Assembly: GCA_965228135.1 (NCBI GenBank)
Contig: OZ245798.1
Location: 1,469,220-1,533,219, forward strand
Reading direction: 5' to 3'
Source: Tagaea sp.
GTDB lineage: Bacteria > Pseudomonadota > Alphaproteobacteria > CACIAM-22H2
DNA: 64,000 nucleotides
Positions 31,464 to 51,632 of this stretch are shown here, piece by piece (position 1 is the first letter of the stretch; the number at the start of each line of letters is the position of its first letter). The position numbers and the translations under genes are program-made. The notes beneath the pieces are model-generated. The model searched no databases, had not been told where the DNA came from, and saw only the letters and a program-made list of their open reading frames with translations.

Positions 31464-32474
31464 CTAAAGAACGTAAATTCCGCGCCGGAGTGCGACGGCA
31501 TTGCGCGCGGCCGTCGCGGCCGGCGGCAACGCCTCCGGCGCGCGGCGCGCATTTTCCGACAGATCGCGCATCGCCTCGGCCAGAAGATCCTGCATCCAAA
31601 GTATGCCGGAATCATTGCGCAGCTTCGCGTGCACATGCAGCGCGATATCGATCGAAGGAATCTCGAACGGAATTTCGAGCAAACTGAAATCGCCGTTCGC
31701 GTTGACGCGGCAGGCGATCGAATACGGAAACAGCGCCGCGAATTGGGAGCTGCGCACGAGTTCGGGGATCGTAGTAAAATTCTCGATCCGCGCTGAGCTA
31801 CGCCGCACGGCGCCGCATTGGTTGAGCCGGGCATCGACCATCTGAAACCCGGTCGCGCGGATGGTTACTTCGACGAAATTGAGTTGTGAAAATTCGGCGA
31901 TCGTCAGCTTGTGGCCCGCCATCGGATGGCCCGATTGAACGAGGCAAACGAAGCGATCTTTGAGCAGCAATCTGCTGGCGAATTCGGCATCGTCGAGATC
32001 GGGAAGAAATCCCATCGCGATATCGACCTGCCCATTGCGCAAGGCAGCGGCGATGCTCGTTGCCTCGAGTTGAACGGTGCGAACACGCACCGACGGCGCA
32101 ACATCCTGCAATCGCTGTAGGATCTGCGGCAGGCAGTAGAACTCCGACACATCCGACATGGCGATGTTGAACGTCCGGTTCGACGTCTCGGGCACGAAGA
32201 CGCCGTAATTGAGCAGCGTCGTGCTGGCGATGCGCATCGCCGTGCTGAACGGCTCGTAGAGTTCCTTGGCCGCCTCGGTCGGCTCCATCTTGTTGCCGAC
32301 ACGCAGAAAAAGCGGGTCCATGAAATGGTCGCGCAGCCGTTTCAGCGAATGGCTGACCGCCGGCTGAGTCAGGCCCAAGCGCGAACCGGCCCCCGAAATG
32401 CTGCGCTCGTCCCAAATGGCGACGAACACCTTCATCAGGTTCAGATCGAAGTGATTGATGTTGCTTCGATTCAT
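31464..32474 (-). CDS. LysR family transcriptional regulator
   Basis: HTH_1 (GLTQPAVSHSLKRLRDHF) plus a LysR substrate-binding domain. Start trimmed to MNRSNINHFDL. Confidence 0.8.
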   Translation of the reverse strand: MNRSNINHFDLNLMKVFVAIWDERSISGAGSRLGLTQPAVSHSLKRLRDHFMDPLFLRVGNKMEPTEAAKELYEPFSTAMRIASTTLLNYGVFVPETSNRTFNIAMSDVSEFYCLPQILQRLQDVAPSVRVRTVQLEATSIAAALRNGQVDIAMGFLPDLDDAEFASRLLLKDRFVCLVQSGHPMAGHKLTIAEFSQLNFVEVTIRATGFQMVDARLNQCGAVRRSSARIENFTTIPELVRSSQFAALFPYSIACRVNANGDFSLLEIPFEIPSIDIALHVHAKLRNDSGILWMQDLLAEAMRDLSENARRAPEALPPAATAARNAVALRRGIYVL

Positions 32475-32618
32475 ACGACCGCGCCCCCCGCTCGAAACCC
32501 TGTTATTGGGCGAACGGACGGCACCGGATCGGCGGCACCCGTTCAAGCGGACGCCCGGTACTTAACAATTACCGTGCCAACCCTTTGTCGCCCGTGCGAC
32601 GGGTGCGATTGTAGTCGA

Positions 32619-33908
32619 TTAGGTCCGCCCTGCAAAACGGCAAGCGATAGCGCACACCAGTTCGTCGCCGCCTTTCGGCCCGACGATCTGGAGCGAAACC
32701 GGACCGTCGGCGATCGGCATCAGGGGCATCGCCAGGGCCGGATGCCCGGAAAGATTGAACGGCCGAACGAGACGCGTGAGCGGCACGGCCGTGCGGTTTT
32801 CCCGCCCCTGTTCGAGTGTGGGCACGGGAACCGGCAAGGTCGGCAGCACCAGCGCATCGACCGAAGCGAAAAGCGCATCAAGCTCGTCCGAGAACGCTTT
32901 GCGCGCCGCCTCGGCCGTGTCGATCATCGCCGCCGTCACTTCGGCGCCGCCCTTCATCCGCTCGCCGACATCCGCGCCAACCAGACCCGACGCCAGCAAA
33001 TGACCTGCCGCCCGCCAGGTCTCGACATTGATCATCGTCAAACCGGCGGCGAAGGCGGAATCCATATGCGCGAATGTCGCCTCGATCGTCTCCAACCCCG
33101 ACGCGGCGATCGCCGAATTCACACGCGCTTCGATCTCGGGCGTCGCGACGCCCTTCAGCACTCCGATCCGGCCTTTGCCCGGCGTCACCGGCCCGAAACC
33201 GGGGCAGAGAATTTCCATCGCGCGCACGATATGCGCGAGATCGCGCGCGAACGGCCCCACGCAATCGAGCGTGGATTCGCGCGGCAGCACGCCGCGCCGC
33301 GACACGCGCCCGAAAGTCGGCTTCATCCCCCAGACGCCGCAACACGCCGCGGGGATGCGGATCGAACCGCCCGTATCCGTCCCGATGCCAATCTCCGCCG
33401 AACCTTCGGCGACGGCGGCGGCACTGCCGCTCGACGAGCCGCCGGGAACGCGGTCTGGAAAATTGGGATTGCGCGGCGTGCCCGCATAATCGTTGATCCC
33501 GGTGACGCCGAAAGCCAGCTCGTGCAGCACCGTCTTGCCGACGATGCGGCACCCCGCCTTCAGCAGAAGATCGACGACCGCCGCGTTCGCCGCCGCGGGC
33601 GGCGCATCGGCAAGCGCCCGGCTGCCCGCGCGCGTGGGATAGCCCGCGATATCGATCGTATCCTTCACCGCGACGCGAACGCCGCTCGCGGAACCCAACT
33701 CCAACCGTTCGACGAAAGCCGTCACTCGCGCGCCCCTTCCACGATCTCCGGTCCTTGTGCGGCGAGGAAGACCGCCTCGGCCAAGAACGCCGTTTCCATC
33801 AACCCCGCCGCCAGCGTCTTGGCGCCGTCCTTCGCCGCGACGCGCAGCATCGGCCGGCCGAAGGAATCGCGCCATTGCGACACGATCGTCACGTCGAGAT
33901 CGCGCCAC
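32619..33908 (-). CDS. Amidase signature (AS) family enzyme; N-terminus uncertain
   Basis: GGSSSGSAAAVA signature, Ser-cisSer-Lys region (GVRVAVKDTIDIAGYPT). The first ~58 codons after the ATG at 33908 are R/G-rich and unlike amidase N-termini. A GTG at 33725 overlaps the stop of a small upstream ORF (GTGA). Confidence 0.7.
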   Translation of the reverse strand: MARSRRDDRVAMARFLRPADAARRGEGRRQDAGGGVDGNGVLGRGGLPRRTRTGDRGRGARVTAFVERLELGSASGVRVAVKDTIDIAGYPTRAGSRALADAPPAAANAAVVDLLLKAGCRIVGKTVLHELAFGVTGINDYAGTPRNPNFPDRVPGGSSSGSAAAVAEGSAEIGIGTDTGGSIRIPAACCGVWGMKPTFGRVSRRGVLPRESTLDCVGPFARDLAHIVRAMEILCPGFGPVTPGKGRIGVLKGVATPEIEARVNSAIAASGLETIEATFAHMDSAFAAGLTMINVETWRAAGHLLASGLVGADVGERMKGGAEVTAAMIDTAEAARKAFSDELDALFASVDALVLPTLPVPVPTLEQGRENRTAVPLTRLVRPFNLSGHPALAMPLMPIADGPVSLQIVGPKGGDELVCAIACRFAGRT

Positions 33909-33943
33909 CGATAGACTTGGCCCATGACGGTCTTGTGGGCCAT
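33722..33943 (-). CDS. Possible small ORF (74 aa) or displaced amidase N-terminal frame
   Basis: MAHKTVMGQVYRW...GPEIVEGARE has non-repetitive composition. Its ATG shares a base with the SnoaL-like stop (TGATG) and its TGA overlaps the amidase GTG (GTGA). Confidence 0.25.
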   Translation of the reverse strand: MAHKTVMGQVYRWRDLDVTIVSQWRDSFGRPMLRVAAKDGAKTLAAGLMETAFLAEAVFLAAQGPEIVEGARE

Positions 33944-34500
33944 CAAGGCTTCATCAACACGGACGCCGACGGAAAATCGAACGCCCAACCCGCCGGCAGC
34001 GGCGCGACGAACACGTTCTCGGTGCGCGTGCGCGTGATCTTCCATTGCCCGTCCGGCTCCTTGCGGAACGTGTTGTTGAGACGCGAGGAGCGCAGCAGCG
34101 CCTTGCCGTCGGAGAAGATCCAAGGCTGCATATGCACCCACTGCCCGTCGGCCGTGTCGCCATGCACATGGATTTGCTCGGACGTCAGGTAGTGACAGTT
34201 CAACAACAAGGCCGGATCGCGCTTCTGGCCCCAGAACGCCTCGAAATGCTTGCGCAAAGCCGCTTTGCCGACGGCCCGGCCGAACTGGTTGTTATAGTAC
34301 TCGCCGACCCCTTCCCAGACCGCGTCTTCGGTATAGAGCGCGAGGATGAGTTCGACCCGCCGCGCGTCGTCGGTCACGCCGTATTCGGGATTGGGCGTGT
34401 CGCACAAGAACATATAGCGCGCCTGGATGCGGCGGATATCGGCTTCCGCTTCCAATATCTCGATGCGTTTGACGAGCGATTCGAGCGTGGGGGTCGTCAT
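33943..34500 (-). CDS. NTF2/SnoaL-like fold protein (ring-hydroxylating dioxygenase beta-subunit-like)
   Basis: SnoaL_4-like pattern. ~60% identical paralog at 54790..55353. Confidence 0.6.
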   Translation of the reverse strand: MTTPTLESLVKRIEILEAEADIRRIQARYMFLCDTPNPEYGVTDDARRVELILALYTEDAVWEGVGEYYNNQFGRAVGKAALRKHFEAFWGQKRDPALLLNCHYLTSEQIHVHGDTADGQWVHMQPWIFSDGKALLRSSRLNNTFRKEPDGQWKITRTRTENVFVAPLPAGWAFDFPSASVLMKP

Positions 34501-34517
34501 AGTCGTTGGGCTCCTGT

Positions 34518-35027
34518 TCAGGCGCTGCGCGCGTGCAGCGTGTGGAAGTCGCGGTCGAAATAGATGAGGCCGCGCCGCGATTCGCCGGTCGATATCGCAA
34601 GCACTTGCGCGAAGATCACGCTATGCGTGCCGACCTCGCGCAGATCGGCGACGCGGCAATCGAACGCGACCGTGGCGCTTTCCAGAATCGGCGCGCCGGT
34701 CGCGAGCTTGCGCCAAACGGCGCCCGCGAACCGTTCCTCGGGCGCTATTCCCGGCTTGCCGAAACGCATCGCCAGCGCTTCGTGATCGCCGCCTAGAACG
34801 CTCACCGACAACACGCCGTTCGCAAGAATCACGTCGTGGACGCTGGAACTGCGGTTGACGCAAACGAGCAGCGTGGGCGGCGTGTCGGTGACGCTGCAAA
34901 CGGCGGAAGCGGTGATGCCGTGCGTCCCCGACGGCCCGTCGGTCGCGACGATGTTGACGGCCGCCCCCAGGCGCGACATCGCCTGACGGAAGTCGCGCGT
35001 ATCGACCGGGTTTGGCGGCATCGTCAT
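34518..35027 (-). CDS. Flavin reductase (HpaC-like, FMN-binding split barrel)
   Basis: Flavin_Reduct domain (FRQAMSRLGAAVNIVAT...GITASAVCSVTDTPP). Confidence 0.8.
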   Translation of the reverse strand: MTMPPNPVDTRDFRQAMSRLGAAVNIVATDGPSGTHGITASAVCSVTDTPPTLLVCVNRSSSVHDVILANGVLSVSVLGGDHEALAMRFGKPGIAPEERFAGAVWRKLATGAPILESATVAFDCRVADLREVGTHSVIFAQVLAISTGESRRGLIYFDRDFHTLHARSA

Positions 35028-35028
35028 C

Positions 35029-35976
35029 CTAGAGATCGAGGACGAGATTGGCGGATTTGGCGCGCGAGCAGCACAGGACGATCTGATCGTTCGCCGCCTT
35101 CTCGTCGTCGGTCAGGAAGGAGTCGCGATGCTCGGGCTCGCCTTCCAGCACGTTGCACAAGCATGTGCCGCAAATGCCCTGCTCGCACGACACCGTCACC
35201 TTCACGCCGATCTTGGCGAGTGCCGCGACGATCGTCTCGTCCGCGCCCACCGTCACGCGGCGGCCGGATCGTGACAGCGTCACGTCGAACGGCGCGCCGC
35301 CGGCGGCTTCGGCGGGCGTGAAGAACTCCTGATGGAACGACGAATCCGGCAGCCCGGCGCCCGTCGCCGCGTCGCGCACCCACGCCATGAAGCCGTTGGG
35401 GCCGCAGACATACACATGCGCGCCGGGCGCCAAGGCGGCGAAGCTTCGGGCCGGATCGAAGCGCTGCTCGGCCGCTTCGTCGTCGAAATGCAGATGGACG
35501 CCGGCCGCGAACGGGACCGCCGCCAATTCGTCGAGGAAAGCGGCGCGCGCGCGCGACCGCGCGCAGTAATGCAGCTCGAAGGCCTGGCCCGCCGCGTGAA
35601 GCGCATGCGCCATCGCGATCATCGGTGTGACGCCGATTCCGCCGCCCACGAGAATGCTGTACGACGCCTTGGGATCGAGGGGGAACAGATTGCGCGGCGC
35701 GCCGATCCGCGTACGCGTGCCGGCCGCGAAAGTCGCGTGCAAAGCCGCCGAGCCGCCGCGCGAGTTGGGATCGCGCAACACGCCGATCCGGTAATCGCCG
35801 CCGCGCGCGGGATCGCCGCAGAGCGAATACTGGCGCACGAGGCCCGGCGCCACTTCCACGTCGATATGCGCGCCGGCCGCGAACGGCGGCAGCTTGGCCC
35901 CGTTCGCAGCGGCAAGTTCCAGGACGACGACGTCGCCGCCCTGGCGTTCGCATTTGGTGACGATCGCCTCGATCAT
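35029..35976 (-). CDS. Phthalate-dioxygenase-reductase-type oxidoreductase (FNR-like FAD/NAD domain plus C-terminal plant-type 2Fe-2S ferredoxin)
   Basis: RQYSL flavin motif, GGIGVTP NAD motif, C-terminal CEQGICGTC...C cluster. Confidence 0.8.
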   Translation of the reverse strand: MIEAIVTKCERQGGDVVVLELAAANGAKLPPFAAGAHIDVEVAPGLVRQYSLCGDPARGGDYRIGVLRDPNSRGGSAALHATFAAGTRTRIGAPRNLFPLDPKASYSILVGGGIGVTPMIAMAHALHAAGQAFELHYCARSRARAAFLDELAAVPFAAGVHLHFDDEAAEQRFDPARSFAALAPGAHVYVCGPNGFMAWVRDAATGAGLPDSSFHQEFFTPAEAAGGAPFDVTLSRSGRRVTVGADETIVAALAKIGVKVTVSCEQGICGTCLCNVLEGEPEHRDSFLTDDEKAANDQIVLCCSRAKSANLVLDL

Positions 35977-35980
35977 CGCG

Positions 35981-36475
35981 TCACAGGATATAGCTGATGC
36001 CGCCGAGCATGCCGTCGGAATTGATCAGACGGATGACCTTGCGCTCGATCTTCAGACCGTCCGGCGTGCGGCGCAGCAGATACTCGAGATTCGCCGTGTA
36101 GCAGCGTTCACGCTCGCGGCGATACTCGGTCAGGCGCTGCATCGCGCGCAGCGAAATGATCGTGCCGTCGTCGGTCAGGATGCGGAAGCGCGAGACCGAA
36201 CGGATCGTGCGCGGAAACGGCGACGCGGCGATCGACGCGCCGCTCATCAGACGCTGCACACGCTTGGCGCGCATCGATTTGTCGTCGTAGGCGTAATTGA
36301 GACCCTTTTCGAAATCGACCACCCCGGGCTCGATCGGCACGATATAGCGCGCGTCGTCGGTCCACATCGTCAGCCATTCGTCGAACTCGCCGTGGTCGAG
36401 GCGATCGGCCTCGAGCCACACGAATTCCATCACCTCGGTCAGCGCGGCGGTCCGCGAAAGCGTTTCGACCGTCAT
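35981..36475 (-). CDS. Aromatic-ring-hydroxylating dioxygenase beta (small) subunit
   Basis: Ring_hydroxyl_B fold; 4-nt gap to the alpha-subunit gene. Confidence 0.8.
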   Translation of the reverse strand: MTVETLSRTAALTEVMEFVWLEADRLDHGEFDEWLTMWTDDARYIVPIEPGVVDFEKGLNYAYDDKSMRAKRVQRLMSGASIAASPFPRTIRSVSRFRILTDDGTIISLRAMQRLTEYRRERERCYTANLEYLLRRTPDGLKIERKVIRLINSDGMLGGISYIL

Positions 36476-36478
36476 CTC

Positions 36479-37753
36479 TCAGACCTCCATCATCTTTTTC
36501 CATTGCCCGTAGGCGGCGCGCATGCCCGCCTCGGAACTCGCATCATCGCTGCGCCGCCCGTCGGGCGTGGCGTATTCGTCGTCGAGCGAGCGATTGACCA
36601 TCAGCCAGGTCAGCGCCGCCGGGCCCTTCGCGCCGCGCTGCACGCGTTCCCACACTTCCGCGTCGTCGGGACTGCCGAAACCCATTGCACCCTGGAAGAA
36701 CTCGTGGATGCGCCGACGCATGCGGTTGGCGGCTTCCGGCCCGCCCGCCATTCCCAGCGCCACGTGGCGGACTTCCGTCTGGCCGACCGAGATCGGCCGC
36801 AGGACGCGAAAGAACGCGGCCGAACAGCCGAGATTGGGGAAAAGGTTCAGATTGAAACCGGCCCCGCCGACCGCGCGCACGATGCGGCGAATCTTCAGAT
36901 CGTCGTGACCTTCGGCGCGCAGCTCGGCCGCCAACGCGGCGAATTTCTCGGGGATCGGCGCCTCGAGATTTTCCTCCAGATCGACGAGCTCGGGCATCAT
37001 GATCATGACGCTATGCCCGTTGCCGAGATCCTCGACCCAGCCGCCCTTGTTCAGGATGTCGAACAGCTTCTCGGTCTCGGGATCGGTCACCTCCAGGAAG
37101 GCGCGATGCACGAACGGGAAGTGATAGGCGTCCGTCGTGTTCTCGAGCTGGATCTTCCAGTTGCCGTCGAAAATGAAGCGATGCTCGCCCTGCGTCGACA
37201 TCGGGTAGCCGGCGCTCTGCTTCATGAACAGGTCGATCCATTTCTTCGCCGGCCCAAGGAAGGAGTCGAGCGATTGGATCGTGTCGTCGAGCGTCGCGAA
37301 GATCAGGCCGTTGTATTCCTCGACGCGCAACGATTTGAGCCCGAGTTCGCCCTTCTCGAGCTTGCCGGCGTAGCTCGTCTCGTACGGCACGCCGCGCAGC
37401 GCGCCGTCGAGCGAATAGGCCCAGCCGTGATACGGGCAGACGAAGCTATTGGTCTTTCCCGAATGCACTTCGCACACCGTGGCGCCGCGATGGCGGCAGC
37501 GGTTGAGCAGGACATGGACCTTGTTCTTCCGATCGCGCGTGACGATCACCGATTCGAGACCGACATGCGCGCGCTTGAAGTCGCCGGCATTCGGGATTTC
37601 CGACGCGTGGGCGACCCAAACCCAAGTCTTGCCGAAGACCTTCTTCATCTCCTCGTCGAAAAGCGCGGGGTCGGTATAGAGCGTGCTGAGCACGCGATCC
37701 GACTTGACCAGTTCCGAGATCCGCGACGGCGCGGTCTTTTCGAGCGTGTCCAT
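36479..37753 (-). CDS. Rieske non-heme iron oxygenase alpha subunit
   Basis: Rieske CRHRG...CPYHGW motif and catalytic domain. True start MDTLEKT at 37753 with an AGGAG SD; the listed ORF is over-extended. Confidence 0.85.
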   Translation of the reverse strand: MDTLEKTAPSRISELVKSDRVLSTLYTDPALFDEEMKKVFGKTWVWVAHASEIPNAGDFKRAHVGLESVIVTRDRKNKVHVLLNRCRHRGATVCEVHSGKTNSFVCPYHGWAYSLDGALRGVPYETSYAGKLEKGELGLKSLRVEEYNGLIFATLDDTIQSLDSFLGPAKKWIDLFMKQSAGYPMSTQGEHRFIFDGNWKIQLENTTDAYHFPFVHRAFLEVTDPETEKLFDILNKGGWVEDLGNGHSVMIMMPELVDLEENLEAPIPEKFAALAAELRAEGHDDLKIRRIVRAVGGAGFNLNLFPNLGCSAAFFRVLRPISVGQTEVRHVALGMAGGPEAANRMRRRIHEFFQGAMGFGSPDDAEVWERVQRGAKGPAALTWLMVNRSLDDEYATPDGRRSDDASSEAGMRAAYGQWKKMMEV

Positions 37754-37763
37754 GACGAACTCC

Positions 37764-38573
37764 TTAGAGATAACGGCTGAGAAGCTTGGCGGTGGCGTAG
37801 CGCAGCGCGCGATCGAACAGATAGCCGAGGATGCCGAGGCAGATGATCCCGACGAACACCCAGTCGGTCCGGCCGAAATTGCGCGCCATCCAGATCGTCG
37901 CCCCAAGCCCGGTTTGCGCCGCGACGATTTCCGCCGAAACGACGGTCAGGAACGAATTGCCCATCGCGATGCGCGCACCCGTGACCATGTAGGGAACCGA
38001 AGACGGCACGATCACCGTCAGCATTTCCGCAATCGCGCCCGCCCCCAAGCTGCGTGCGGCGCGCAAGCGCAACGGACTGACCGCCGTCACGCCCGCGATC
38101 GTGTTCAGCGTGACGATGAAGATCGTCGTGTAGAAGATCAGCGCGACTTTCGAGATTTCCCCCGGCCCCAGCCAAATCACCGCCAGCGTGACGAAGGCGA
38201 TCGGCGGGATGAAGCGGAAGAACTCGATATAGGGGTCCATCACCAAACGGACGATCGCGAAGCGGCCCATGAACAGGCCGAGCGGCACGCCGCACGCGAC
38301 CCCCAAAATCCATCCGGCGGCGATGCGGGCACCCGACGCGGCGATCGATTCGAAGAGCGAACCGTCCTGCGCCATCTCCACCATCGTCCACCACACCGTG
38401 ATCGGCGACGGCAGGAACAACGGCGAGGTGTAGATCGAGGCGATCTGCCAGAGGACGATGCCCGCAAGGACGCCGGCACCGCCGATGGCGGTTTTCTTGG
38501 CGGCGGCGGAAATCTGGGCTTTCATGCCGTCGGCGCGCGGTGCCGCGATCTGGACCGGGTTGGAAACGCTCAT
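37764..38573 (-). CDS. ABC transporter permease (nitrate/sulfonate/bicarbonate, SsuC/TauC-type)
   Basis: BPD_transp_1 domain. Start trimmed to MSVSNPVQ (ATGA overlap with the upstream ATPase gene). Confidence 0.75.
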   Translation of the reverse strand: MSVSNPVQIAAPRADGMKAQISAAAKKTAIGGAGVLAGIVLWQIASIYTSPLFLPSPITVWWTMVEMAQDGSLFESIAASGARIAAGWILGVACGVPLGLFMGRFAIVRLVMDPYIEFFRFIPPIAFVTLAVIWLGPGEISKVALIFYTTIFIVTLNTIAGVTAVSPLRLRAARSLGAGAIAEMLTVIVPSSVPYMVTGARIAMGNSFLTVVSAEIVAAQTGLGATIWMARNFGRTDWVFVGIICLGILGYLFDRALRYATAKLLSRYL

Positions 38574-40314: not shown

Positions 40315-40362
40315 TGGGGGCCTCTCCTGCTTTGGGACGTTGGGGTTTCGGGGGACGGGGGA

Positions 40363-40884
40363 TCAGGCGGCGGCGCGCAACTCGAAACGGCAGATATCGT
40401 CGTTATGCGATGCGGCGCAGCGCGTTTCGCGCGCGACGGCGCCGGGACCGATCAGATGCGGGGCGATCGCGGTCAAGATGCCGACGATCGGCGCGCAAGC
40501 CATCGCCGTTTGGCCGCGCAACGCTTGGGCGAAGGGCGAATTGCGGACGGTCACGGCGATGGCGCCGTCCGGCAGATCGGCGAATTCGAACACGCCCCAG
40601 CCGAGCTGGGCGGACGTTTCCACGATCACGCGGCGCAAGGCGTCGCCCATCGCGGCGCCGCTCGCGCGATAGGCGGCGATCGACTTGCCGCCATGTTCGG
40701 CGACCGAAGCGGCGAGTGCCGCGAAGGCCTGCGCGCGCGCCGCTTCGGGCAGACGCGCGAATAGGCCCATCAGCGCGTCGGGCCGCAGGGTGAGATAGCG
40801 GATCGCGCCGTCGCGCAACTCGCCGTTCGCCGCATCGTGGACCAGACGCTCGCGGAAGCTTTTGCCGAGATCGACCGCGCTCAC
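40363..40884 (-). CDS. V4R (4-vinyl-reductase/XylR-N-like) domain protein, GTG start
   Basis: The C-terminal 135 aa match the V4R ligand-binding fold. The only start compatible with the upstream gene is the GTG at 40884, which overlaps the monooxygenase stop (GTGA). The listed ORF 40363..41526 is an antisense extension. Confidence 0.55.
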   Translation of the reverse strand: MSAVDLGKSFRERLVHDAANGELRDGAIRYLTLRPDALMGLFARLPEAARAQAFAALAASVAEHGGKSIAAYRASGAAMGDALRRVIVETSAQLGWGVFEFADLPDGAIAVTVRNSPFAQALRGQTAMACAPIVGILTAIAPHLIGPGAVARETRCAASHNDDICRFELRAAA

Positions 40885-42086
40885 GGGAACCCCGCCGGCG
40901 CCGGAAGCCCCGCGAGCACCGCGCCCGCGTTCTCGAACGTCGCGTCGTTCAACGCCGCGTGCTGCGTCACCACCATCGCGTCGCGCAGGATGTGCTGCAA
41001 GCGGTTCGACGATTCCGCCGCCGCCATGCCCGCCGCCCGGTAGCAGGATTCGACCGTTTCCAGCGACGCGCGCGCCGCATGGCTCGCCGCGATGCGCATC
41101 AGGTTGACGAATTCGACGGGCAGCGCCGGCCGGTCGCGCAAGCGATCCCACGCTTCCTCGGCCGTTTCGTAGAAGAAGGCCCGCGCCGCACGCAGCTTGC
41201 CTTCGCCTTGCGCCAAGGCCGTGCGGAAATACGCGCGATCGGCGAGACGCGCGGCCCCCGGCATGATCTTCTTGGCGCCGGACATATCGGCGGCGAGATC
41301 GAGCGCCGCGCGCGCGAGGCCAAGATTGCAGACCGCATGGACCTGCGCTTGATAGGCGAGCGTCGGATAGCGGTAGAGCTGATCGTCGAAGATGCCTTGC
41401 GTGCCGCGATCGCAGGTCCACATATCGGCGTAGAACTTGTCGACCACGCGCGTATCGTGGCTGCCGGTGGCGCGCATGCCGACCACATCCCAGACTTCGA
41501 GGATCTCCACCTCGCGCGCGGCGCATACCGCCATTTTGACCTGCGGCGGACCGGCCTTGACCGCCGCGGGGTCCTTGCGCGGCATGATGCCCACACCGAT
41601 CCAGTCGGCCCCCATGCAGCCGGACGCGAAGCGCCAGCGTCCGCTGACCTTCCAGCCGCCCTCGACGCGATCGGCTTCGTGCAACGGATAAAGCCCGCCG
41701 GCGAAGACCTGATCCGGTCCGCCGGCGTAGATCGCTTCCTGCGCTTCCAGCGGCAGAGCGGCGATGTAGGTGTTGGCCGACCCGAACGCCGCGACCCAGC
41801 CGGTCGAGCCATCGACTTCGGCGATCGCTTCGACCATTTTGAGGAAGTGATGCGGCGCCATCGCATCGCCGCCGAAGCGCGTGGGCGTCGCCGCCCGGAA
41901 GACCCGCGCCGCCTTCATCAACGCGATCACATCGCGCGGCACATGACGCTTGACGTCGAACTCGCCGCGCCGCTCGCGGACCGCTTCCAGCAAACGCAGA
42001 AAGTCCGGCGTTTTCGTCAGTGAGGCGAAATCGACGGGCGCGCGGCGCGCGGCGGCAGGGGCGAGAATCTGGGCTTCGTTCTGCAT
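40881..42086 (-). CDS. Acyl-CoA-dehydrogenase-fold FADH2-dependent monooxygenase (TcpA/TftD/NpcA-like, group D)
   Basis: ACAD N-, middle and C-terminal domains without the acyl-CoA catalytic base context. Sits next to flavin reductase and hydroxyquinol-pathway genes. Start trimmed to MQNEAQIL. Confidence 0.75.
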   Translation of the reverse strand: MQNEAQILAPAAARRAPVDFASLTKTPDFLRLLEAVRERRGEFDVKRHVPRDVIALMKAARVFRAATPTRFGGDAMAPHHFLKMVEAIAEVDGSTGWVAAFGSANTYIAALPLEAQEAIYAGGPDQVFAGGLYPLHEADRVEGGWKVSGRWRFASGCMGADWIGVGIMPRKDPAAVKAGPPQVKMAVCAAREVEILEVWDVVGMRATGSHDTRVVDKFYADMWTCDRGTQGIFDDQLYRYPTLAYQAQVHAVCNLGLARAALDLAADMSGAKKIMPGAARLADRAYFRTALAQGEGKLRAARAFFYETAEEAWDRLRDRPALPVEFVNLMRIAASHAARASLETVESCYRAAGMAAAESSNRLQHILRDAMVVTQHAALNDATFENAGAVLAGLPAPAGFP

Positions 42087-42352
42087 CGGGGGGATCGAGC
42101 CTTCGAAAAACTTCGCGGAGCTAACGTCCCGATGAGACGGGCGCGCGGCCTTAGGGTCAAATGCGATGTTGTCATTGGCCGAATTATCGATGCGAATAAT
42201 GGGCGCGAACGCCGATCCATGGCGCGCATATGCTCGCCGATGCGGCAAAGCCGGATTCATTCGCGTGCAGTTCCAATAAAAAATAAGCAAAGGCGTGTCT
42301 CGACATTCGCGTCGATCGGAAAGATTATGCGCGCCCCTCGAGGAGTGCCGAC

Positions 42353-43219
42353 ATGCCCCACACCGCGAAACAGCCATTTGCGCACGCCGTCAGCGAAGCG
42401 ACGCGCGACGACGCGCCCGAGCGATTGATCGAGGCGCGTTATCGCGCCGCACTCGACGGCAATCCGCGATGGAATGCGACGATCGCCGGATTGCTCGCGC
42501 ATCGTTCGGTGCGCGGCTACGCGAACGCGCCTTTGCCCGAGGACACGCTGGAGACGCTGATCGCGGCGGCGCAATCGGCGCCGACATCCTCCAATCTGCA
42601 AGTCTGGAGCGTCGTCGCCGTGGCCGATCCGGCGCGCAAGGCGCGTTTGTCGATGTTCGCGGGCAACCAGAAGCATATCGTCGACGCGCCGTTGTTCCTG
42701 GTCTGGCTCGCCGATCTCAGCCGTTTGCGCGCGTTGGGCGATGCGCGCGGCGTCACGACCGAAGCCCTCGATCATCTGGAGATGTTTCTGACCGGCGCGA
42801 TCGACGCCGCACTCGCCGCGCAGAACGCCGTCGTGGCGGCCGAAAGCCTTGGGCTCGGCACGGTCTATATCGGCGGCATGCGCAACAAGCCCGAGGACGT
42901 CGCGGCGGAGTTGAAGCTGCCGGCGAATGTGTTCGCGGTGTTCGGGCTTTGCGTGGGCGTGCCCGATCCCGCGATCGTCACCGGGATCAAACCGCGCCTG
43001 CCGCAGCGCGCGGTCATGCATCGCGAAACCTACGATGCCGCGGCCAGCGCCGATATCGGCGCCTACGACGCGGCGATGCAGGCATTCCAAGGCGAGCAGA
43101 AGGTCAGGCAAGTGCCGTGGAGCGACCAAGCGCTGCGCCGCGTCGCAGGGCCGCAATCGCTGTCCGGTCGCGATCGGTTGCGCGCGGCGCTGCATAATCT
43201 CGGCTTCCTTTTGCGTTAG
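42353..43219 (+). CDS. Nitroreductase-family oxidoreductase (TcpB/NfsA-like)
   Basis: Nitroreductase fold (RRSVRGY...PTSSNLQ...); divergent from the monooxygenase gene. Confidence 0.8.
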   Translation: MPHTAKQPFAHAVSEATRDDAPERLIEARYRAALDGNPRWNATIAGLLAHRSVRGYANAPLPEDTLETLIAAAQSAPTSSNLQVWSVVAVADPARKARLSMFAGNQKHIVDAPLFLVWLADLSRLRALGDARGVTTEALDHLEMFLTGAIDAALAAQNAVVAAESLGLGTVYIGGMRNKPEDVAAELKLPANVFAVFGLCVGVPDPAIVTGIKPRLPQRAVMHRETYDAAASADIGAYDAAMQAFQGEQKVRQVPWSDQALRRVAGPQSLSGRDRLRAALHNLGFLLR

Positions 43220-43220
43220 G

Positions 43221-43895
43221 TCAGAGGGCCGGCACCTTCAACTCGCCGACGGTGCCGTCGATATGGAGCTTGGCGCCGGTGAGCGCTTGGAGTTCGTCGA
43301 GCGTCATGCCGCCAAGCTTCTCGCGCAGCACGAATTTGCCGCCGACGATGTCGATCACGGCAAGGCTCGTATAGACCCGCGTGACGCAGCCCACACCGGT
43401 CAACGGCAAGGTGCAGCGCTCGACCAGTTTGGGCTTACCGTCCTTGGTCACATGCTCGGTGATCACCGCCACGCGCTTGGCGCCGTGCACGAGATCCATC
43501 GCCCCGCCGACGGCCGGCACGCCTTTGGGGCCGGTGCTCCAATTCGCCAGATCGCCGCTTTGCGCGACTTGATAGGCGCCGAGGATCGCGACATCCAAAT
43601 GCCCGCCGCGCACCATCGCGAAGCTGGTCGCGTGGTCGAAAAAGGCCGAGCCCGGCTTCAACGTCACGGCTTTTTTGCCGGCATTGATCAGATCCCAGTC
43701 TTCTTCGCCCGCTTTGGGTGCCGGCCCGAAATCCAAGATGCCGTTCTCGGTGTGGAAGATCGCTTGGCGCCCCGGCGGCTGATATTGCGCCACCATCTCC
43801 GGGAAGCCGATCCCGAGATTGACGTAAGCGCCGTCGTCGATGTCCTGCGCCGCGCGCCAGGCGATCTGGGCGTTGGAAAGTTTTTCGGCGGTCAT
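43221..43895 (-). CDS. 3-oxoacid/3-oxoadipate CoA-transferase subunit B
   Basis: CoA_trans family, active-site Glu region (FHTENG). Start MTAEKL at 43895 overlaps the subunit A stop (ATGA); the listed ORF fuses both subunits. Confidence 0.8.
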   Translation of the reverse strand: MTAEKLSNAQIAWRAAQDIDDGAYVNLGIGFPEMVAQYQPPGRQAIFHTENGILDFGPAPKAGEEDWDLINAGKKAVTLKPGSAFFDHATSFAMVRGGHLDVAILGAYQVAQSGDLANWSTGPKGVPAVGGAMDLVHGAKRVAVITEHVTKDGKPKLVERCTLPLTGVGCVTRVYTSLAVIDIVGGKFVLREKLGGMTLDELQALTGAKLHIDGTVGELKVPAL

Positions 43896-44599
43896 GGGTA
43901 GCGCGCCCCCGCGCGGTTCAAATCTTCTTCCTGCGCCGGGTTCGGCACTTCGACGATCTTCTGGACGAAGATGCCGGGCGTGACGACGCTTTCGGGCGCG
44001 ATCCCGCCGGGCTCGACGAGCTTCGAGACCTGCACGATTGCCGTGGCCGACGCCATACACATCAGCGGGCCGAAGTTCCGAGCGGCCGCGCGATAGGTGA
44101 GATTGCCATGCGTGTCGCCGATCTCCGCCTTTACCAGGGCGAAATCCGCTTTCAGCCAGCGTTCCTGCACGTAAGGCCGGCCGTCGAACTCGGCGACCGG
44201 CTTGCCCTTGGCGAGATCGGTGCCGTAGCTCGTGGGCGTATAGAACGCCGGGATGCCCGCCCCGCCCGCGCGAATACGTTCGGCGAGCGTGCCTTGCGGG
44301 ACGAGTTCCAACTCGATCTTGCCGGCAAGGTAACGCTCGGTGAACACGACCGGATCGGCCGAGCGCGGAAAGGAGCAGATGAGTTTCGCCACGCATCCCG
44401 CTTCGATCAGCGCGGCGAGGCCGACATGGCCGTTCCCCGCGTTGTTGTTGACGACGGTGAGGCCCTTGGGCCCCTTGTCGATCAGCGCATGGATCAGCTC
44501 GATCGGCGAGCCGGACCCGCCGAACCCGCCGATCATCACCGATGCGCCATCGCCGATCACCGAGACGGCGGCGGCGGCGGATTTCGATATTTTGTCCAT
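43892..44599 (-). CDS. 3-oxoacid/3-oxoadipate CoA-transferase subunit A
   Basis: CoA_trans family N-terminal subunit (GGFGGSGSP). Confidence 0.8.
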   Translation of the reverse strand: MDKISKSAAAAVSVIGDGASVMIGGFGGSGSPIELIHALIDKGPKGLTVVNNNAGNGHVGLAALIEAGCVAKLICSFPRSADPVVFTERYLAGKIELELVPQGTLAERIRAGGAGIPAFYTPTSYGTDLAKGKPVAEFDGRPYVQERWLKADFALVKAEIGDTHGNLTYRAAARNFGPLMCMASATAIVQVSKLVEPGGIAPESVVTPGIFVQKIVEVPNPAQEEDLNRAGARYP

Positions 44600-44642
44600 A
44601 TCGTCTCGTTAGGCGAAACGCGGCGATCGGCGCAGACACGAG

Positions 44643-44659
44643 ATATCCATTTTGGATAT
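44643..44659. promoter_or_regulatory. Perfect inverted repeat ATATCCA-N3-TGGATAT (candidate operator) in a divergent promoter region
   Basis: 7-bp arms with a 3-nt spacer, then an 8-bp GC hairpin (GGAGGCGG-agcc-CCGCCTCC) at 44669-44688, between the CoA-transferase and maleylacetate reductase genes. Confidence 0.3.
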
Positions 44660-44727
44660 GATTCGGCGGGAGGCGGAGCCCCGCCTCCGCTAGGCTCGGG
44701 TCGCTTCGGCCAAGAGCGATTGCCGCC

Positions 44728-45804
44728 ATGACATCGGGGAGCGACGTGAAGGAATTCGTCTACGAAGCGCTGCCGTCGCGCGTGATCTTCGGCTGGGGCG
44801 CCACCGCGCGCCTAACGGCCGAAGTCGAGCGACTGAATCTGAAACATATTCTCGTCCTATCGACGCCCGCGCAAACCGGCACCGCGCGCACGGTCGCCGC
44901 CGCGTTGGGCAACCGCGTCGCGGCGACCTTCGACGGCGCGGCGATGCACACGCCCGTCGACGTGACGAATCGCGCGATGGAGATCGTGCGCGCGAACGGC
45001 ATCGACGCCACGCTCGCCATCGGCGGCGGATCGACGATCGGCCTCGGCAAGGCCATCGCCTTGCGCACCGATCTGCCGCAGATCACGCTGCCCACGACCT
45101 ATGCCGGGTCGGAGATGACGCCGATTCTCGGTCAAACCGAAAACGGCGTGAAAACGACGATCCGCGACCCGCGCGTGCTGCCGGAAATCGTTATCTACGA
45201 TCCGGCCCATACGCTGTCGCTGCCCGTGGCCCTTTCCTCGACCAGCGGGCTCAATGCGATCGCGCATGCCGTCGAAGGTCTTTACGCCAAGGACGGCAAT
45301 CCGATCGTGTCGCTGATGGCGCAGGACGGCATTCGCGCCCTTGCGTCCGCGTTGCCGGTGCTGATCGAACGCCCCGCCAATCGCGACGCGCGCGAGAAGG
45401 CGCTGTATGGGGCCTGGCTTTGCGGCGCCACGCTCGGCGCGGTCGGCATGGCGCTGCATCACAAGCTATGCCACGTGCTCGGCGGCACGTTCGATCTGCC
45501 GCACGCCGAAACCCATAGCGTCATCCTGCCATATGCCGTCGCATACAACGCCGGTGCGGCACCCGATGCGATGCACGCGATCGAACGCGCGTTGGGTGCG
45601 GGTCCCGCCGCATCCGCGTTGCAAACGCTCGCCAAGCGGATCGGCGCGCCGCTCTCCCTCGCGGCGATCGGCATGCCCAAGGACGGCATCGACAAAGCCG
45701 CCGATCTCGCCGTCGCCAATCCCTATTGGAACCCGCGCCCCATCGACCGCGCGTCGATCGCCGCTTTGATCGCCGACGCCTTCGCCGGAAAGAGCCTCCC
45801 ATGA
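44728..45804 (+). CDS. Maleylacetate reductase (iron-containing alcohol dehydrogenase family)
   Basis: Fe-ADH fold, GGGS(T/V)IG NAD motif. Stop overlaps the next start (ATGA). Confidence 0.8.
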   Translation: MTSGSDVKEFVYEALPSRVIFGWGATARLTAEVERLNLKHILVLSTPAQTGTARTVAAALGNRVAATFDGAAMHTPVDVTNRAMEIVRANGIDATLAIGGGSTIGLGKAIALRTDLPQITLPTTYAGSEMTPILGQTENGVKTTIRDPRVLPEIVIYDPAHTLSLPVALSSTSGLNAIAHAVEGLYAKDGNPIVSLMAQDGIRALASALPVLIERPANRDAREKALYGAWLCGATLGAVGMALHHKLCHVLGGTFDLPHAETHSVILPYAVAYNAGAAPDAMHAIERALGAGPAASALQTLAKRIGAPLSLAAIGMPKDGIDKAADLAVANPYWNPRPIDRASIAALIADAFAGKSLP

Positions 45805-46679
45805 CCGCCAACGGATATTTCACGCGTGAAAACTCCGCCGAAACCGTGATCGCGCGGATGAAGGATTGTCCCGACGCGCGTCTGGTGCAAGTGATGTCGG
45901 CGCTGATCCGTCATCTGCATGCCGCCGTCGACGAGGTCGGGTTGACGATGAAGGAATGGGAAGCGGCGATCGCCTTCCTGACCAAGACCGGCCACACCTG
46001 CACCGAATGGCGGCAGGAATTCATCCTGCTTTCCGACATCCTGGGCGCTTCGATGTTGGTCGACGCGATCAATCACGATCGCGGCGGCGGCACCACGGAA
46101 TCGACCGTGCTGGGCCCGTTCCATGTCGCCCAGGCGCCGATGCGCGCGATGGGTGACGATATTTGTCTCGACCATGTCGGCAGCCCCATCGTCGTCCACG
46201 GCAAAGTCCTCGATCCCGACGGCAAACCGATCGCGGGCGCGCTGCTGGACGTATGGCAGGCGAACGGCGACGGATTCTACGACGTGCAGCAAGCGGGCAT
46301 CCAGCCGCCGATGAATCTGCGCGGCCGCTTCACGACCGGCGCCGACGGGCGCTTTTGGTTCAAGACGATCGAGCCGCGCTTCTACCCGATCCCCGATGAC
46401 GGGCCGGTCGGCAAGCTGTTGCGCGCGATGGGCCGCCACCCCTTCCGTCCTGCGCATATCCATTTCATCGTCGAAGCGCCGGGCTTCGAGAAGCTGACGA
46501 CGCATCTTTTCCCGCGTGGCGCCGAGTATCTCGATTCGGACGCGGTGTTCGGCGTGAAGGATAGCCTGATCGCCGATCTGGCCCCGGCCGACGATCCGAC
46601 GCTCGCCGCCGCGTGCCGCATCGCCAACCCGTTCACGGCGATGGAATGGGAATTCCGCTTGAGCCGCGAAGCGCGCTGA
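45801..46679 (+). CDS. Intradiol ring-cleavage dioxygenase (hydroxyquinol 1,2-dioxygenase-like)
   Basis: Catechol-dioxygenase N-terminal domain plus intradiol catalytic domain (Fe ligands in ...FRPAHIHF...). Start MTANGY at 45801. Confidence 0.8.
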   Translation: MTANGYFTRENSAETVIARMKDCPDARLVQVMSALIRHLHAAVDEVGLTMKEWEAAIAFLTKTGHTCTEWRQEFILLSDILGASMLVDAINHDRGGGTTESTVLGPFHVAQAPMRAMGDDICLDHVGSPIVVHGKVLDPDGKPIAGALLDVWQANGDGFYDVQQAGIQPPMNLRGRFTTGADGRFWFKTIEPRFYPIPDDGPVGKLLRAMGRHPFRPAHIHFIVEAPGFEKLTTHLFPRGAEYLDSDAVFGVKDSLIADLAPADDPTLAAACRIANPFTAMEWEFRLSREAR

Positions 46680-46688
46680 GGGACGAAA

Positions 46689-46976
46689 ATGCTCTACGCC
46701 ATCCATTGTCTCGACAAGCCCGGCGCGCTGGCGCTGCGTCTTGCCAATTACGACGCGCATAAAGCCTATCTCGGCGCGGCACCGCTCAAGACGCTGGTGT
46801 CCGGACCGCTGGTCGCGGCCGATGGCGAAACAATGATCGGCAGTCTGCTGATCGTCGAAGCCGCGAGCCGGACGGATGTCGAGGCCTTCAACCGCAACGA
46901 CCCGTTCGCCAAGGCCGGCGTATGGGAACGCGTCAGCATCGAAGCGTTTTTGAAGCGCGTCGACAACCGCATCTAA
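46689..46976 (+). CDS. YciI-like protein
   Basis: 95 aa, YciI/Dabb-like fold. Confidence 0.7.
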   Translation: MLYAIHCLDKPGALALRLANYDAHKAYLGAAPLKTLVSGPLVAADGETMIGSLLIVEAASRTDVEAFNRNDPFAKAGVWERVSIEAFLKRVDNRI

Positions 46977-46995
46977 GGCCGTAAGGAAGAATCGA

Positions 46996-47880
46996 ATGAC
47001 GACGCACGAGAACGTCGGCTGGGTCGGCGTCGGCAAAATGGGGCAGCCCATGACCCGCCATCTGATGGCGGCGGGCCATCCTGTGTTCGTCGTCGAGCCC
47101 GACGCCGGCAACCGCGCCGCCGCCGCCAAGGCCGGTGCGACGATCTGCGCCGATCTCGGCGCGCTCGCCGGCACGGCGCGGATCGTGTTCACGATGATCC
47201 CCAACGACGCCACGCTCGACGCGATCGTCACGGGAAAGGACGGTCTCGCCGGCGCGATGCGCGACGGCGATATCCTGATCGATATGAGCACCGTATCGCC
47301 GCGCGCCTCCGCACGCGCGGCAAACGCTTGCGCCGCGCGCGGCATCGCCTTTCTGCGGGCGCCCGTCTCGGGCAGCACGGCGACCGCCGAACAGGCCGCC
47401 TTGTCGGTCCTCGTTTCCGGACCGCGCGCGGCGTTCGATCGCGTCGAACCGTTGCTCGCCGCGTTCTCCAGAACGCGGCTCTATCTGGGCGACGGCGAGC
47501 AAGCGCGGTACCTGAAGATCGTGTTGAACACGCTGGTCGGCGGCACGGCCGCGATCACGGCGGAAGCGCTGGCGCTAGGCCGCGAAGGCGGGCTCGACGA
47601 CGCGACGATGATGGACACCATCGCCAAAAGCGCCGTCGCCTCGCCGTTGCTCGGCTATAAGCGCGACATGATCGTTTCGGGCGACTACGCGCCGGCCTTT
47701 TCGGTCCTGCAGATGATCAAGGATCTCGACATCATCCTGTCCACCGCGGAAGCGGACGGCGTCGCGATGCCGGTGGCGCAGGACGCGCGCCGCCTTTACG
47801 CCGACGCCGTCCAAGCGGGGCTTGGCGAGCGCGATTTTTTCGTGCTCGCCGATAGGGGCAGGCGCGGCGCCGCCGGATGA
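46996..47880 (+). CDS. NAD(P)-dependent oxidoreductase, 3-hydroxyisobutyrate dehydrogenase family
   Basis: N-terminal GWVGVGKMG Rossmann motif, followed by the 6-PGDH-like C-terminal domain. Confidence 0.75.
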   Translation: MTTHENVGWVGVGKMGQPMTRHLMAAGHPVFVVEPDAGNRAAAAKAGATICADLGALAGTARIVFTMIPNDATLDAIVTGKDGLAGAMRDGDILIDMSTVSPRASARAANACAARGIAFLRAPVSGSTATAEQAALSVLVSGPRAAFDRVEPLLAAFSRTRLYLGDGEQARYLKIVLNTLVGGTAAITAEALALGREGGLDDATMMDTIAKSAVASPLLGYKRDMIVSGDYAPAFSVLQMIKDLDIILSTAEADGVAMPVAQDARRLYADAVQAGLGERDFFVLADRGRRGAAG

Positions 47881-51621: not shown

Positions 51622-51632
51622 GGCGCGCCCGT

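Follow-up and report, generated by a model that had tools for sequence, protein, structure and literature searches.

The 64,000-nucleotide (nt) stretch of Tagaea sp. contig OZ245798.1 analysed here (the window) carries an aromatic catabolic region that extends from position 31464 to approximately 50001. Genes were called on the basis of GC content at third codon positions (GC3) and scanned against Pfam and NCBIfam, and start codons were refined using Shine-Dalgarno context and the lengths of homologues. The region probably consists of two adjacent catabolic units, each conserved separately. Unit A (31464-42086, minus strand) comprises genes for an acyl-CoA dehydrogenase (ACAD)-fold flavin-dependent monooxygenase, a V4R protein, an ABC importer, a three-component Rieske oxygenase, a flavin reductase, a SnoaL-like protein, a small conserved protein, an amidase and a LysR-family regulator. 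Judged by homology and synteny, it is likely to be a 13-gene operon of the iac family, the indole-3-acetic acid (IAA) catabolic genes, with a distinct architecture. Unit B (42353 to approximately 50001) contains genes for hydroxyquinol 1,2-dioxygenase (HQD), maleylacetate reductase (MAR) and the CoA-transferase PcaIJ, together with their neighbours.

From the monooxygenase gene to the amidase gene, every junction in unit A is 48 nt or shorter and five are overlapping, an arrangement that fits a single transcription unit. A scan for consensus promoters and terminators gave no excess over shuffled expectation, and an inverted-repeat search of three intergenic regions for a LysR box returned nothing convincing. 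The first gene of unit B, encoding an NfsA-like reductase, is divergent from the IacA-like monooxygenase gene, with a spacer of 266 bp between them. An earlier note on this DNA, prepared from the sequence alone, had described an aromatic catabolic region here, which is borne out. Pfam and NCBIfam confirmed the gene families, order, strands and coordinates that it gave, and all the genes that it named are present; its list made no mention, however, of the YCII gene, the HIBADH-like gene that ends at 47880 or the 73-residue open reading frame (ORF), which fills what looks like a gap separating the SnoaL gene from that of the amidase.

Table 1 Predicted genes of units A and B, with matches and identity of the iac-like products to their Burkholderia-type counterparts. 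SBP, substrate-binding protein.
Gene product	Coordinates	Strand	Matches and context	Identity to Burkholderia-type counterpart
LysR-family regulator	31464-32474	-	Pfam HTH_1, LysR_substrate; 144 nt after amidase gene	
IacH-like amidase-signature amidase, 368 aa	32619-33725	-	Pfam Amidase	50-54%
Conserved 73-aa ORF	33722-33943	-	Overlaps its two neighbours by 1 and 4 nt	
IacI-like SnoaL_4 protein, 185 aa	33943-34500	-	Pfam SnoaL_4	34-41% (71-84% to variant loci)
IacG-like flavin reductase, 169 aa	34518-35027	-	Pfam Flavin_Reduct; NCBIfam RutF/HpaC-like, below cut-off	45-51% (Burkholderia-type/canonical)
IacF-like PDR-type reductase, 315 aa	35029-35976	-	Pfam NAD_binding_1, Fer2 (residues 233-306)	~44% (59-63% to variant loci)
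IacD-like Rieske beta subunit, 164 aa	35981-36475	-	Pfam Ring_hydroxyl_B	38%
IacC-like Rieske alpha subunit, 424 aa	36479-37753	-	Pfam Rieske, Ring_hydroxyl_A	56%
ABC permease	37764-38573	-	Pfam BPD_transp_1	
ABC ATPase	38570-39367	-	Pfam ABC_tran	
NMT1/SsuA-type SBP	39367-40314	-	Pfam NMT1_2	
Stand-alone V4R protein, 173 aa	40363-40884	-	Pfam V4R, below cut-off	
IacA-like ACAD-fold flavin-dependent monooxygenase, 401 aa	40881-42086	-	Pfam PF08028 Acyl-CoA_dh_2	53-56%
NfsA/Frp-like NADPH:FMN/nitro/quinone reductase	42353-43219	+	Pfam Nitroreductase	
PcaJ, 3-oxoadipate (3-oxoacid) CoA-transferase	43221-43895	-	NCBIfam pcaJ_scoB_fam, 302 bits (cut-off 243.55, passed)	
PcaI, 3-oxoadipate (3-oxoacid) CoA-transferase	43892-44599	-	NCBIfam pcaI_scoA_fam, 355 bits (cut-off 128.5, passed)	
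Maleylacetate reductase (MAR)	44728-45804	+	PDB 3w5s (GraC), E = 4e-130; also 3hl0	
Hydroxyquinol 1,2-dioxygenase (HQD), intradiol	45801-46679	+	PDB 8r2x, E = 5e-99	
YCII protein	46689-46976	+	Pfam YCII	
HIBADH-like dehydrogenase	46996-47880	+	Pfam NAD_binding_2/11	
ABM-domain protein	47902-48204	-	Pfam ABM	
SBP_bac_1 protein, 561 aa	48316-50001	+	Pfam SBP_bac_1	

Unit A contains homologues of iacA, iacC, iacD, iacF, iacG, iacH and iacI, which are seven of the nine enzyme genes of a canonical iac cluster. Relatives were aligned, one genome per species was scanned, and the window proteins were mapped onto the 80 loci returned. The iac reference consisted of Burkholderia, Paraburkholderia and Caballeronia loci, taken as canonical by gene content, gene order and published protein sizes. 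These loci have the order iacF-LysR-iacC-iacD … iacA-iacB-iacI-iacH-iacE … iacG, with an IacB of 125 aa and an IacE of 247 aa, a short-chain dehydrogenase/reductase (SDR); both lengths are those tabulated for LB400. The identities of the window proteins to these counterparts (Table 1) are comparable with those between accepted iac loci, the published range for Paraburkholderia xenovorans LB400 and Pseudomonas putida 1290 being 40-61%. The Rieske alpha subunit is 66% identical to its counterpart in Pseudomonas sp. Root562, and it groups with the IacC-type enzymes, which act on aromatic substrates, rather than with enzymes for non-aromatic substrates, a grouping that the earlier note had raised as a possibility. 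The IacF-like reductase is composed of an FNR-like domain followed by a C-terminal 2Fe-2S ferredoxin domain. The sizes of the IacC-, IacD-, IacF-, IacG- and IacH-like proteins match the published iac table, the amidase being similar in length to the published IacH (374 aa). IacI has been described as a SnoaL-fold protein (PMC7225977), and two of the three iac markers iacA, iacB and iacI (PMC9613470), the first and the last, have homologues in the window.

Unit A thus shares with the canonical iac loci the IacA-type monooxygenase with an IacG flavin reductase, the IacCD Rieske oxygenase with IacF, and IacI and IacH. It also shares a LysR regulator with the iac locus of strain PsJN, which is likewise LysR-regulated (PMC9613470); the window regulator is 52-56% identical to the LysR proteins of the syntenic variant loci described below. 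Unlike the canonical loci, the operon has no iacE, iacB or MarR-type regulator gene, it adds the V4R protein, the NMT1-type importer and the 73-aa ORF, and its IacA-like and Rieske alpha proteins fall in separate clades. Moreover, its neighbours in the window are hydroxyquinol genes and not cat genes.

The monooxygenase is, by homology, neither a TcpA-type enzyme nor an SfnB-like one. TcpA, TftD and HadA belong to the HpaB family. No TcpA or TftD structure was present among the PDB matches of the window protein at E ≤ 1e-5, and no Pfam match to HpaB or HpaB_N was found. Its nearest PDB relatives are Rv3094c (E = 1e-51), HsaA and XiaF, and its NCBIfam scores are 149 bits for HsaA, 112 bits for C2-HpaH and 40.6 bits for SfnB (TIGR04022, cut-off 430.9). 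Several relatives of approximately 60% identity carry the JGI name 'indole-3-acetate monooxygenase', and the best match in the species-representative scan, from Pinisolibacter, is 73% identical. The TcpA/TcpB-type assignment made in the earlier note is therefore replaced, in view of the Acyl-CoA_dh_2 domain and of these relatives, and the SfnB/DszC-like clustering that the same note had entertained was not observed. The public annotation places the start of this gene at 42260, 58 codons upstream, giving a protein of 459 aa; the length of the homologues (approximately 400 aa) and a Shine-Dalgarno site favour the start at 42086.

The architecture of unit A recurs in other bacteria. The 12-gene order of monooxygenase, V4R protein, SBP, ATPase, permease, Rieske alpha, Rieske beta, reductase, flavin reductase, SnoaL protein, 73-aa ORF and amidase is identical in Celeribacter (L002 and L003), Pseudooceanicola endophyticus (L005) and Rhizobium rhizoryzae (L088). 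Partial versions of the module are present in Xanthobacter agilis, Bradyrhizobium cosmicum, Herbaspirillum and Pinisolibacter, and in the last two the core is smaller, with monooxygenase, ABC importer and SnoaL genes but no Rieske genes. In neighbour-joining (NJ) trees, which were not bootstrapped, the window IacA-like protein belongs to a clade of 12 members, of which all those with enough flanking DNA are linked to an NMT1-type ABC importer and most to a V4R gene. The window Rieske alpha subunit belongs to a six-member NJ clade drawn exclusively from loci with the V4R, ABC and small-ORF genes, and the proteins linked to IacB or IacE fall in other clades.

Some loci combine the two types. In X. 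agilis (L006, 280-18101), iacB, iacE, iacG, iacH, iacC, iacD and iacF lie beside the variant module, giving two Rieske pairs. In metagenome locus L091 (1304-13090), the genes beside the variant module form a canonical-type set whose IacA is a separate and more distant one, so that the locus has two IacA paralogues as well as two Rieske pairs. The arrangements in X. agilis and L091 indicate that canonical and variant types can mix or coexist. In Acetobacteraceae loci, variant-type genes are mixed with iacB, iacE or both. Two further loci differ in other respects. Pseudomonas sp. Root562 (L050, 5156-17709), a strain listed among those obtained for Conway et al. 2022, has homologues of iacI, iacG, iacA, iacF, iacD, iacC and iacH, and iacB and iacE were not found within 10 kb of iacA. 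In metagenome locus L159, an Lrp/AsnC regulator gene and a gene for a 1204-aa fused POR/DUF6537 protein (indolepyruvate:ferredoxin oxidoreductase-like) lie at 4688-8886, beside a V4R-type module.

The V4R protein has 128 detected homologues. A sequence search of the PDB gave nothing significant and a fold search was needed: an AlphaFold (AF2) model built from a 100-sequence alignment (pLDDT of 93.5) has as its top Foldseek matches the phenol sensor domains of MopR, PoxR and DmpR (TM-scores of 0.71-0.78 and E-values of approximately 2e-7). Residues C128, E151, C154 and C163 are conserved in the family, in the same Cys-Glu-Cys-Cys order as the zinc ligands of DmpR (Cys151, Glu172, Cys177 and Cys185), the correspondence being one of residue order and not of superposition. 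The predicted fold and this residue order are shared with the sensor (A) domains of these sigma54 activators; unlike them, the V4R protein has no AAA+ or DNA-binding domain, its identity to them is only 15-18%, and its gene lies inside a catabolic operon. On the evidence of the model, it is a stand-alone aromatic-ligand-binding sensor domain with no output domain, which may chaperone a substrate or intermediate, or modulate the LysR regulator. The V4R gene directly follows the IacA-like gene; its product does not align with IacB and was rejected as its equivalent. It was also considered as an iad component, given homologues in Achromobacter and Bordetella, and this too was rejected: in Achromobacter sp. 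RTa (L087, 2560-11216), the homologue (45% identity) lies by a GntR regulator gene, with a divergent Opp-type ABC importer and a Rieske alpha/beta pair that is different and unrelated. Importer-linked Rieske oxygenase clusters may repeatedly include a stand-alone V4R protein as an accessory. A literature search found no paper linking V4R proteins with iac genes.

The ABC importer matches NCBIfam models for SsuA_fam and TauC/SaoP-like proteins, all below cut-offs, and its SBP matches a PDB taurine-binding protein at only E = 7e-13. An importer of this NMT1 type is linked to the IacA-like gene in loci of Celeribacter, Pseudooceanicola, Xanthobacter, Rhizobium, Bradyrhizobium, Herbaspirillum and Pinisolibacter. 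The 73-aa ORF is conserved as well: a tblastn search located ORFs of 36-60% identity directly after the SnoaL gene in L002, L003, L005, L006, L018, L043, L044 and L088. Pfam has no family for it and none for IacB; the two proteins do not align, and the ORF was rejected as an IacB candidate. Its single-sequence AF2 model (pLDDT of 63) was unreliable and was not used.

Like the iad loci, the second aerobic auxin-degrading type, unit A has, as judged from its genes, Rieske alpha and beta subunits, a reductase and a dedicated ABC importer. However, the iad markers IotA/IorB (PMC9613470), which belong to the POR/IOR family (IadA/IadB), were not found in the window with a fused IOR query or in Pfam scans of the ORFs. 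Furthermore, iad loci have no iacA, whereas the window operon is led by an IacA-like gene, and iad loci use B-III SBPs and MarR-type regulators, whereas the SBP of unit A is of the NMT1 type. Ruegeria pomeroyi was considered as a characterised comparator from the Rhodobacterales and set aside, as it carries an iad locus.

The intradiol dioxygenase of unit B is clearly of the hydroxyquinol type on its sequence matches. Its best PDB match, 8r2x, is a 6-chlorohydroxyquinol 1,2-dioxygenase, and PnpC, 1tmx and 3n9t are also matched; catechol dioxygenases are reached only at approximately 1e-40. The HQD and MAR types proposed in the earlier note are thus upheld. The NfsA-like reductase scores 194 bits with the NCBIfam NfsA model (cut-off 223) and matches NfrA1, Frp and NfsA structures in the PDB at 1e-38 to 1e-47. 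The pcaIJ genes resemble sequences on replicons of rhizobia and Paracoccus, at approximately 78-80% nucleotide identity. In common with tcp (Cupriavidus), tft (Burkholderia cepacia AC1100) and gra (Rhizobium sp. MTP-10005), unit B combines HQD and MAR; the nitroreductase-family reductase and the YCII protein encoded nearby are candidate counterparts of the quinone reductase TcpB and the YCII dechlorinase TftG. Unlike these systems, it has no HpaB-family hydroxylase of the TcpA/TftD/GraA type, the sole two-component monooxygenase being IacA-type, and its core recurs in Rhizobium with sugar/cyclitol-type dehydrogenases. Other close HQDs are accompanied by their own FAD_binding_3 or HpaB hydroxylase, and unit B has no dedicated hydroxylase of that kind.

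Adjacency of the two units was examined in 124 other IacA-like loci, comprising 80 genome loci and 44 metagenome loci of at least 9 kb. Unit B, including the NfsA-like gene and HQD, adjoins the IacA-like gene in none of them. Conversely, homologues of the YCII protein (63% identity), HQD (64%), MAR (58%) and the HIBADH-like dehydrogenase (48%) recur together in Rhizobium sp. B230/85 (L086), a locus with no iac genes, where the surroundings are of sugar/cyclitol type (GFO_IDH_MocA- and ADH-type dehydrogenases and sugar ABC genes). The YCII-HQD-MAR part recurs in another contig, L085. The 561-aa SBP of the window is 38% identical over 557 aa to an SBP encoded beside the HIBADH-like gene in L086, and the ABM and SBP_bac_1 genes (47902-50001) are a probable continuation of the hydroxyquinol unit.

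In R. rhizoryzae, the variant module is followed by a YCII gene and a catR-catBCA-pcaD set: a BenM/CatM-like LysR regulator, CatB, CatC, CatA and 3-oxoadipate enol-lactonase. The record is unannotated and its genes were called in this analysis; the NCBIfam scores all passed their cut-offs (CatB, 531 bits against 335; CatC, 148 against 131; CatA, 446 against 392; enol-lactonase, 296 against 256). Characterised iac systems end in catechol and have catABC close by (PMC7225977), and the Caballeronia and Trinickia loci compared here conform to this. The R. rhizoryzae copy of the module resembles the canonical loci in this respect, and its neighbours support catechol as the product of the variant operon. 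The absence of adjacency in the 124 loci, the cat linkage in R. rhizoryzae and the recurrence of the core of unit B alone in Rhizobium lead us to infer that units A and B are independent neighbours in the window. The single pathway envisaged in the earlier note, in which the operon would feed the hydroxyquinol block, is not sustained by these observations.

Taking these lines together, we favour a reading in which unit A is a variant auxin (IAA)-type catabolic operon and unit B is a separate hydroxyquinol/beta-ketoadipate block, and consider it reasonably likely. Candidate substrates of unit A are IAA and related or substituted indolic acids, and the order of reactions proposed here is modelled on the iac biochemistry of Caballeronia glathei (PMC7225977). 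The NMT1-type ABC system would import IAA or a close indolic acid, and the IacA-like enzyme, supplied with reduced flavin by the IacG-like reductase, would oxygenate the indole at C2 to give a 2-oxindole. Opening of the pyrrole ring, loss of the side chain and release of the nitrogen would then fall to the Rieske oxygenase (together with the PDR-type reductase), the SnoaL protein and the amidase, and would yield a catechol-type diol; the V4R protein is likely to bind either the aromatic substrate or a pathway intermediate. The canonical second step, that of the SDR IacE with IacB alongside, would either be encoded elsewhere in the genome or be bypassed. In unit B, HQD would form maleylacetate, MAR would reduce it to 3-oxoadipate, and PcaIJ would convert this to 3-oxoadipyl-CoA, with the NfsA-like flavin/quinone reductase, the YCII protein and the HIBADH-like dehydrogenase presumably accompanying this route.

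Several observations weigh against this reading. The homology was measured against the Burkholderia-type loci and not against the proteins of P. putida 1290, PsJN or C. glathei, and the catabolic enzymes of the operon all score below the NCBIfam equivalog cut-offs. With tblastn, an IacB query (from L047) had no match in the window at E ≤ 1e-3, and an IacE query gave only generic SDRs of approximately 30% identity in unrelated operons (17547-18251 and 23280-23981); IacB and IacE were also not found in the syntenic loci L002, L003 and L005. In characterised iac systems IacE, which with IacA makes up the functional core, is needed for the formation of dioxindole-3-acetic acid (DOAA) from 2-oxo-IAA (PMC7225977). 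The iac genes of PsJN and LB400 are spread across replicons, and iacE and iacB may accordingly lie beyond the 64-kb window. The coexistence of the variant module with canonical-type iac genes in X. agilis and L091 suggests a diverged specificity and not plain IAA degradation. No cat genes were found in the 64-kb window, while the hydroxyquinol block sits divergent beside the IacA-like gene; an MR_MLE gene at 29966-31084 was considered as a CatB candidate and rejected, as it scores 242 bits as a talarate/galactarate dehydratase-like protein and 91 bits as a muconate cycloisomerase (cut-off 335). In metagenome locus L159, a MAR homologue (57% identity; 16737-17771) directly follows the SnoaL gene of the V4R-type module on the same strand. 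Finally, the searchable literature holds neither a description of this architecture nor an experiment on any member of it.

Part of this evidence can be accommodated if the two units cooperate. The operon would then degrade an indolic acid with a substituted ring, for example 5- or 6-hydroxy-IAA or a chloro-IAA, and its benzenoid product, hydroxyquinol or a catechol that yields maleylacetate, would be consumed by HQD, MAR and PcaIJ, with the NfsA-like reductase keeping the quinol reduced. The divergent position of the units only 266 bp apart, the lack of cat genes in the window and of a hydroxylase in unit B, the MAR homologue in L159, the placement of the variant IacA-like and Rieske alpha proteins in clades of their own, and the coexistence with canonical-type genes, which suggests a different substrate, all point in this direction. 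Against it stand the absence of HQD beside the IacA-like gene in every one of the 80 genome and 44 metagenome loci, the catechol route implied by the catR-catBCA-pcaD genes in R. rhizoryzae, and the conservation of the unit B core alone among sugar/cyclitol-type genes in Rhizobium; moreover, the L159 contig ends after the MAR gene and no dioxygenase is seen. The evidence against independence of the units is real but thin, and we regard cooperation as unlikely, if still worth considering. A bolder extension, which seems to us more doubtful again, is that the V4R/NMT1-ABC type represents a third aerobic auxin-type route, independent of IacE and IacB, in which the V4R and 73-aa proteins would be true components, which would feed a maleylacetate/hydroxyquinol branch both here and in L159, and whose natural substrate would be a ring-substituted auxin or indolic acid (5-hydroxy-IAA or chloro-IAA) and not IAA.

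The operon might instead be related to iac by descent and act on another substrate, such as indole, oxindole or isatin derivatives or some other bicyclic acid, which the ABC system would import and the V4R protein sense or bind. The lack of iacE and iacB counts in favour of this, and the NMT1/SsuA importer differs both from that of iad (B-III SBP) and from the branched-chain-type importer linked to the Marinomonas iac genes. IacA enzymes accept many indoles (PMC7225977), a Rieske-less core exists in Herbaspirillum and Pinisolibacter, and in the iif/ind indole oxidation pathway of Acinetobacter sp. O153 an ACAD-fold indole monooxygenase, a flavin reductase and a SnoaL protein likewise open the pyrrole ring (PMC7225977). 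However, as described, iif includes the SDR IifB, ends in anthranilate and has no such Rieske, amidase or ABC genes. Seven proteins of unit A have orthologue-level identity to iac proteins, loci of X. agilis and Acetobacteraceae mix variant genes with iacB and iacE, and the cat linkage in R. rhizoryzae is that of canonical iac clusters, so that a substrate of this kind appears improbable. Far less credible is the proposal of the earlier note, a single island-borne pathway in which an anilide or aminophenol-type compound would lose its acyl group to the amidase and its amino group to the Rieske oxygenase, and would then be hydroxylated to hydroxyquinol by a two-component monooxygenase of the TcpA/TcpB type. 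The gene families it called for are present and the HQD is closest to a 6-chlorohydroxyquinol dioxygenase; a nitroreductase-family gene and a YCII gene are companions of HQD and MAR, in the manner of TcpB and TftG, which also counts in its favour. Yet the monooxygenase is of the Acyl-CoA_dh_2/IacA type and not HpaB/TcpA, iac counterparts in the same operon setting exist for the amidase, SnoaL protein, Rieske oxygenase and reductase, and the two halves are not co-conserved, leaving the proposal largely refuted by homology and synteny. What holds of it is that the upstream operon probably handles a nitrogen-containing aromatic compound by means of an amidase and a three-component Rieske oxygenase. 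Sulfur scavenging by an SfnB/DszC-like monooxygenase with an ssu/tau-type sulfonate importer would agree with the best NCBIfam matches of the SBP, permease and ATPase (SsuA, TauC and related models) and with the weak SfnB match of the monooxygenase. The transporter matches are well below cut-offs, the SfnB score is far under both its own cut-off and the HsaA score, and the operon also includes iac homologues in its Rieske, SnoaL and amidase genes; this reading is refuted for practical purposes.

No island signature of mobility genes, tRNA or compositional break was found in the window; direct-repeat boundaries were not searched for. There is no tRNA gene in the window and no integrase or transposase domain among the approximately 58 window ORFs scanned, and the GC content of the region (0.61-0.685) is continuous with that of its flanks, which encode ordinary ABC transporters, acid-sugar dehydratases and regulators. 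A plasmid search returned no near-identical copy, only similarity at the level of pcaIJ. The description of the cluster as island-borne consequently finds no support, which further weighs against the anilide pathway.

The degradation of auxin by bacteria shapes how plant roots develop and how algae and bacteria signal to each other. In surveys, two aerobic types, iac and iad, are recognised, often by the markers IacA with IacE, or IadD with IadE. Because the architecture described here lacks iacE and iacB, a screen that requires both iacA and iacE would overlook it. It recurs as a conserved module in Rhizobiales and in marine Rhodobacterales, and several of its carriers are cultured type strains; cultured carriers include R. 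rhizoryzae DSM 29514, Celeribacter neptunius DSM 26471 and X. agilis LMG 16336. If IAA is degraded, the IacE step would be dispensable or replaceable, which bears on the chemistry between 2-oxo-IAA and catechol, and a new importer type and a stand-alone protein with an aromatic-sensor fold would join the pathway. A substituted auxin or some other indole as substrate would instead widen the range of compounds known for the family. The iac clusters themselves are already known, and what appears new from comparison of the loci is the architectural variant; the result also corrects a plausible but wrong annotation as pollutant degradation.

Other features of the window lie outside the two units. 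A second IacI-like SnoaL_4 gene (54790-55509, minus strand), 66% identical to the operon copy, lies 7 kb past the hydroxyquinol block by sugar-type ABC genes and an RpiR regulator gene. Directly after unit B, an ORF of 845 aa at 50008-52545 (minus strand) encodes a GMC oxidoreductase (choline dehydrogenase-like) in which the GMC domain begins at residue 319, and its true start is probably much later. The only stretch of low GC content, at approximately 1-10300 (0.50-0.58, compared with approximately 0.64 elsewhere), lies more than 20 kb from the cluster and may be foreign DNA. It encodes an AAA_21/SMC-like ATPase (124-1419), and four of its other ORFs (5036-5707, 6189-6662, 7202-7771 and 7983-9218) match nothing in Pfam. 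It is followed at 10331-12604 (plus strand) by a gene whose product is a methyl-accepting chemotaxis protein that carries a PilZ domain at its C terminus.

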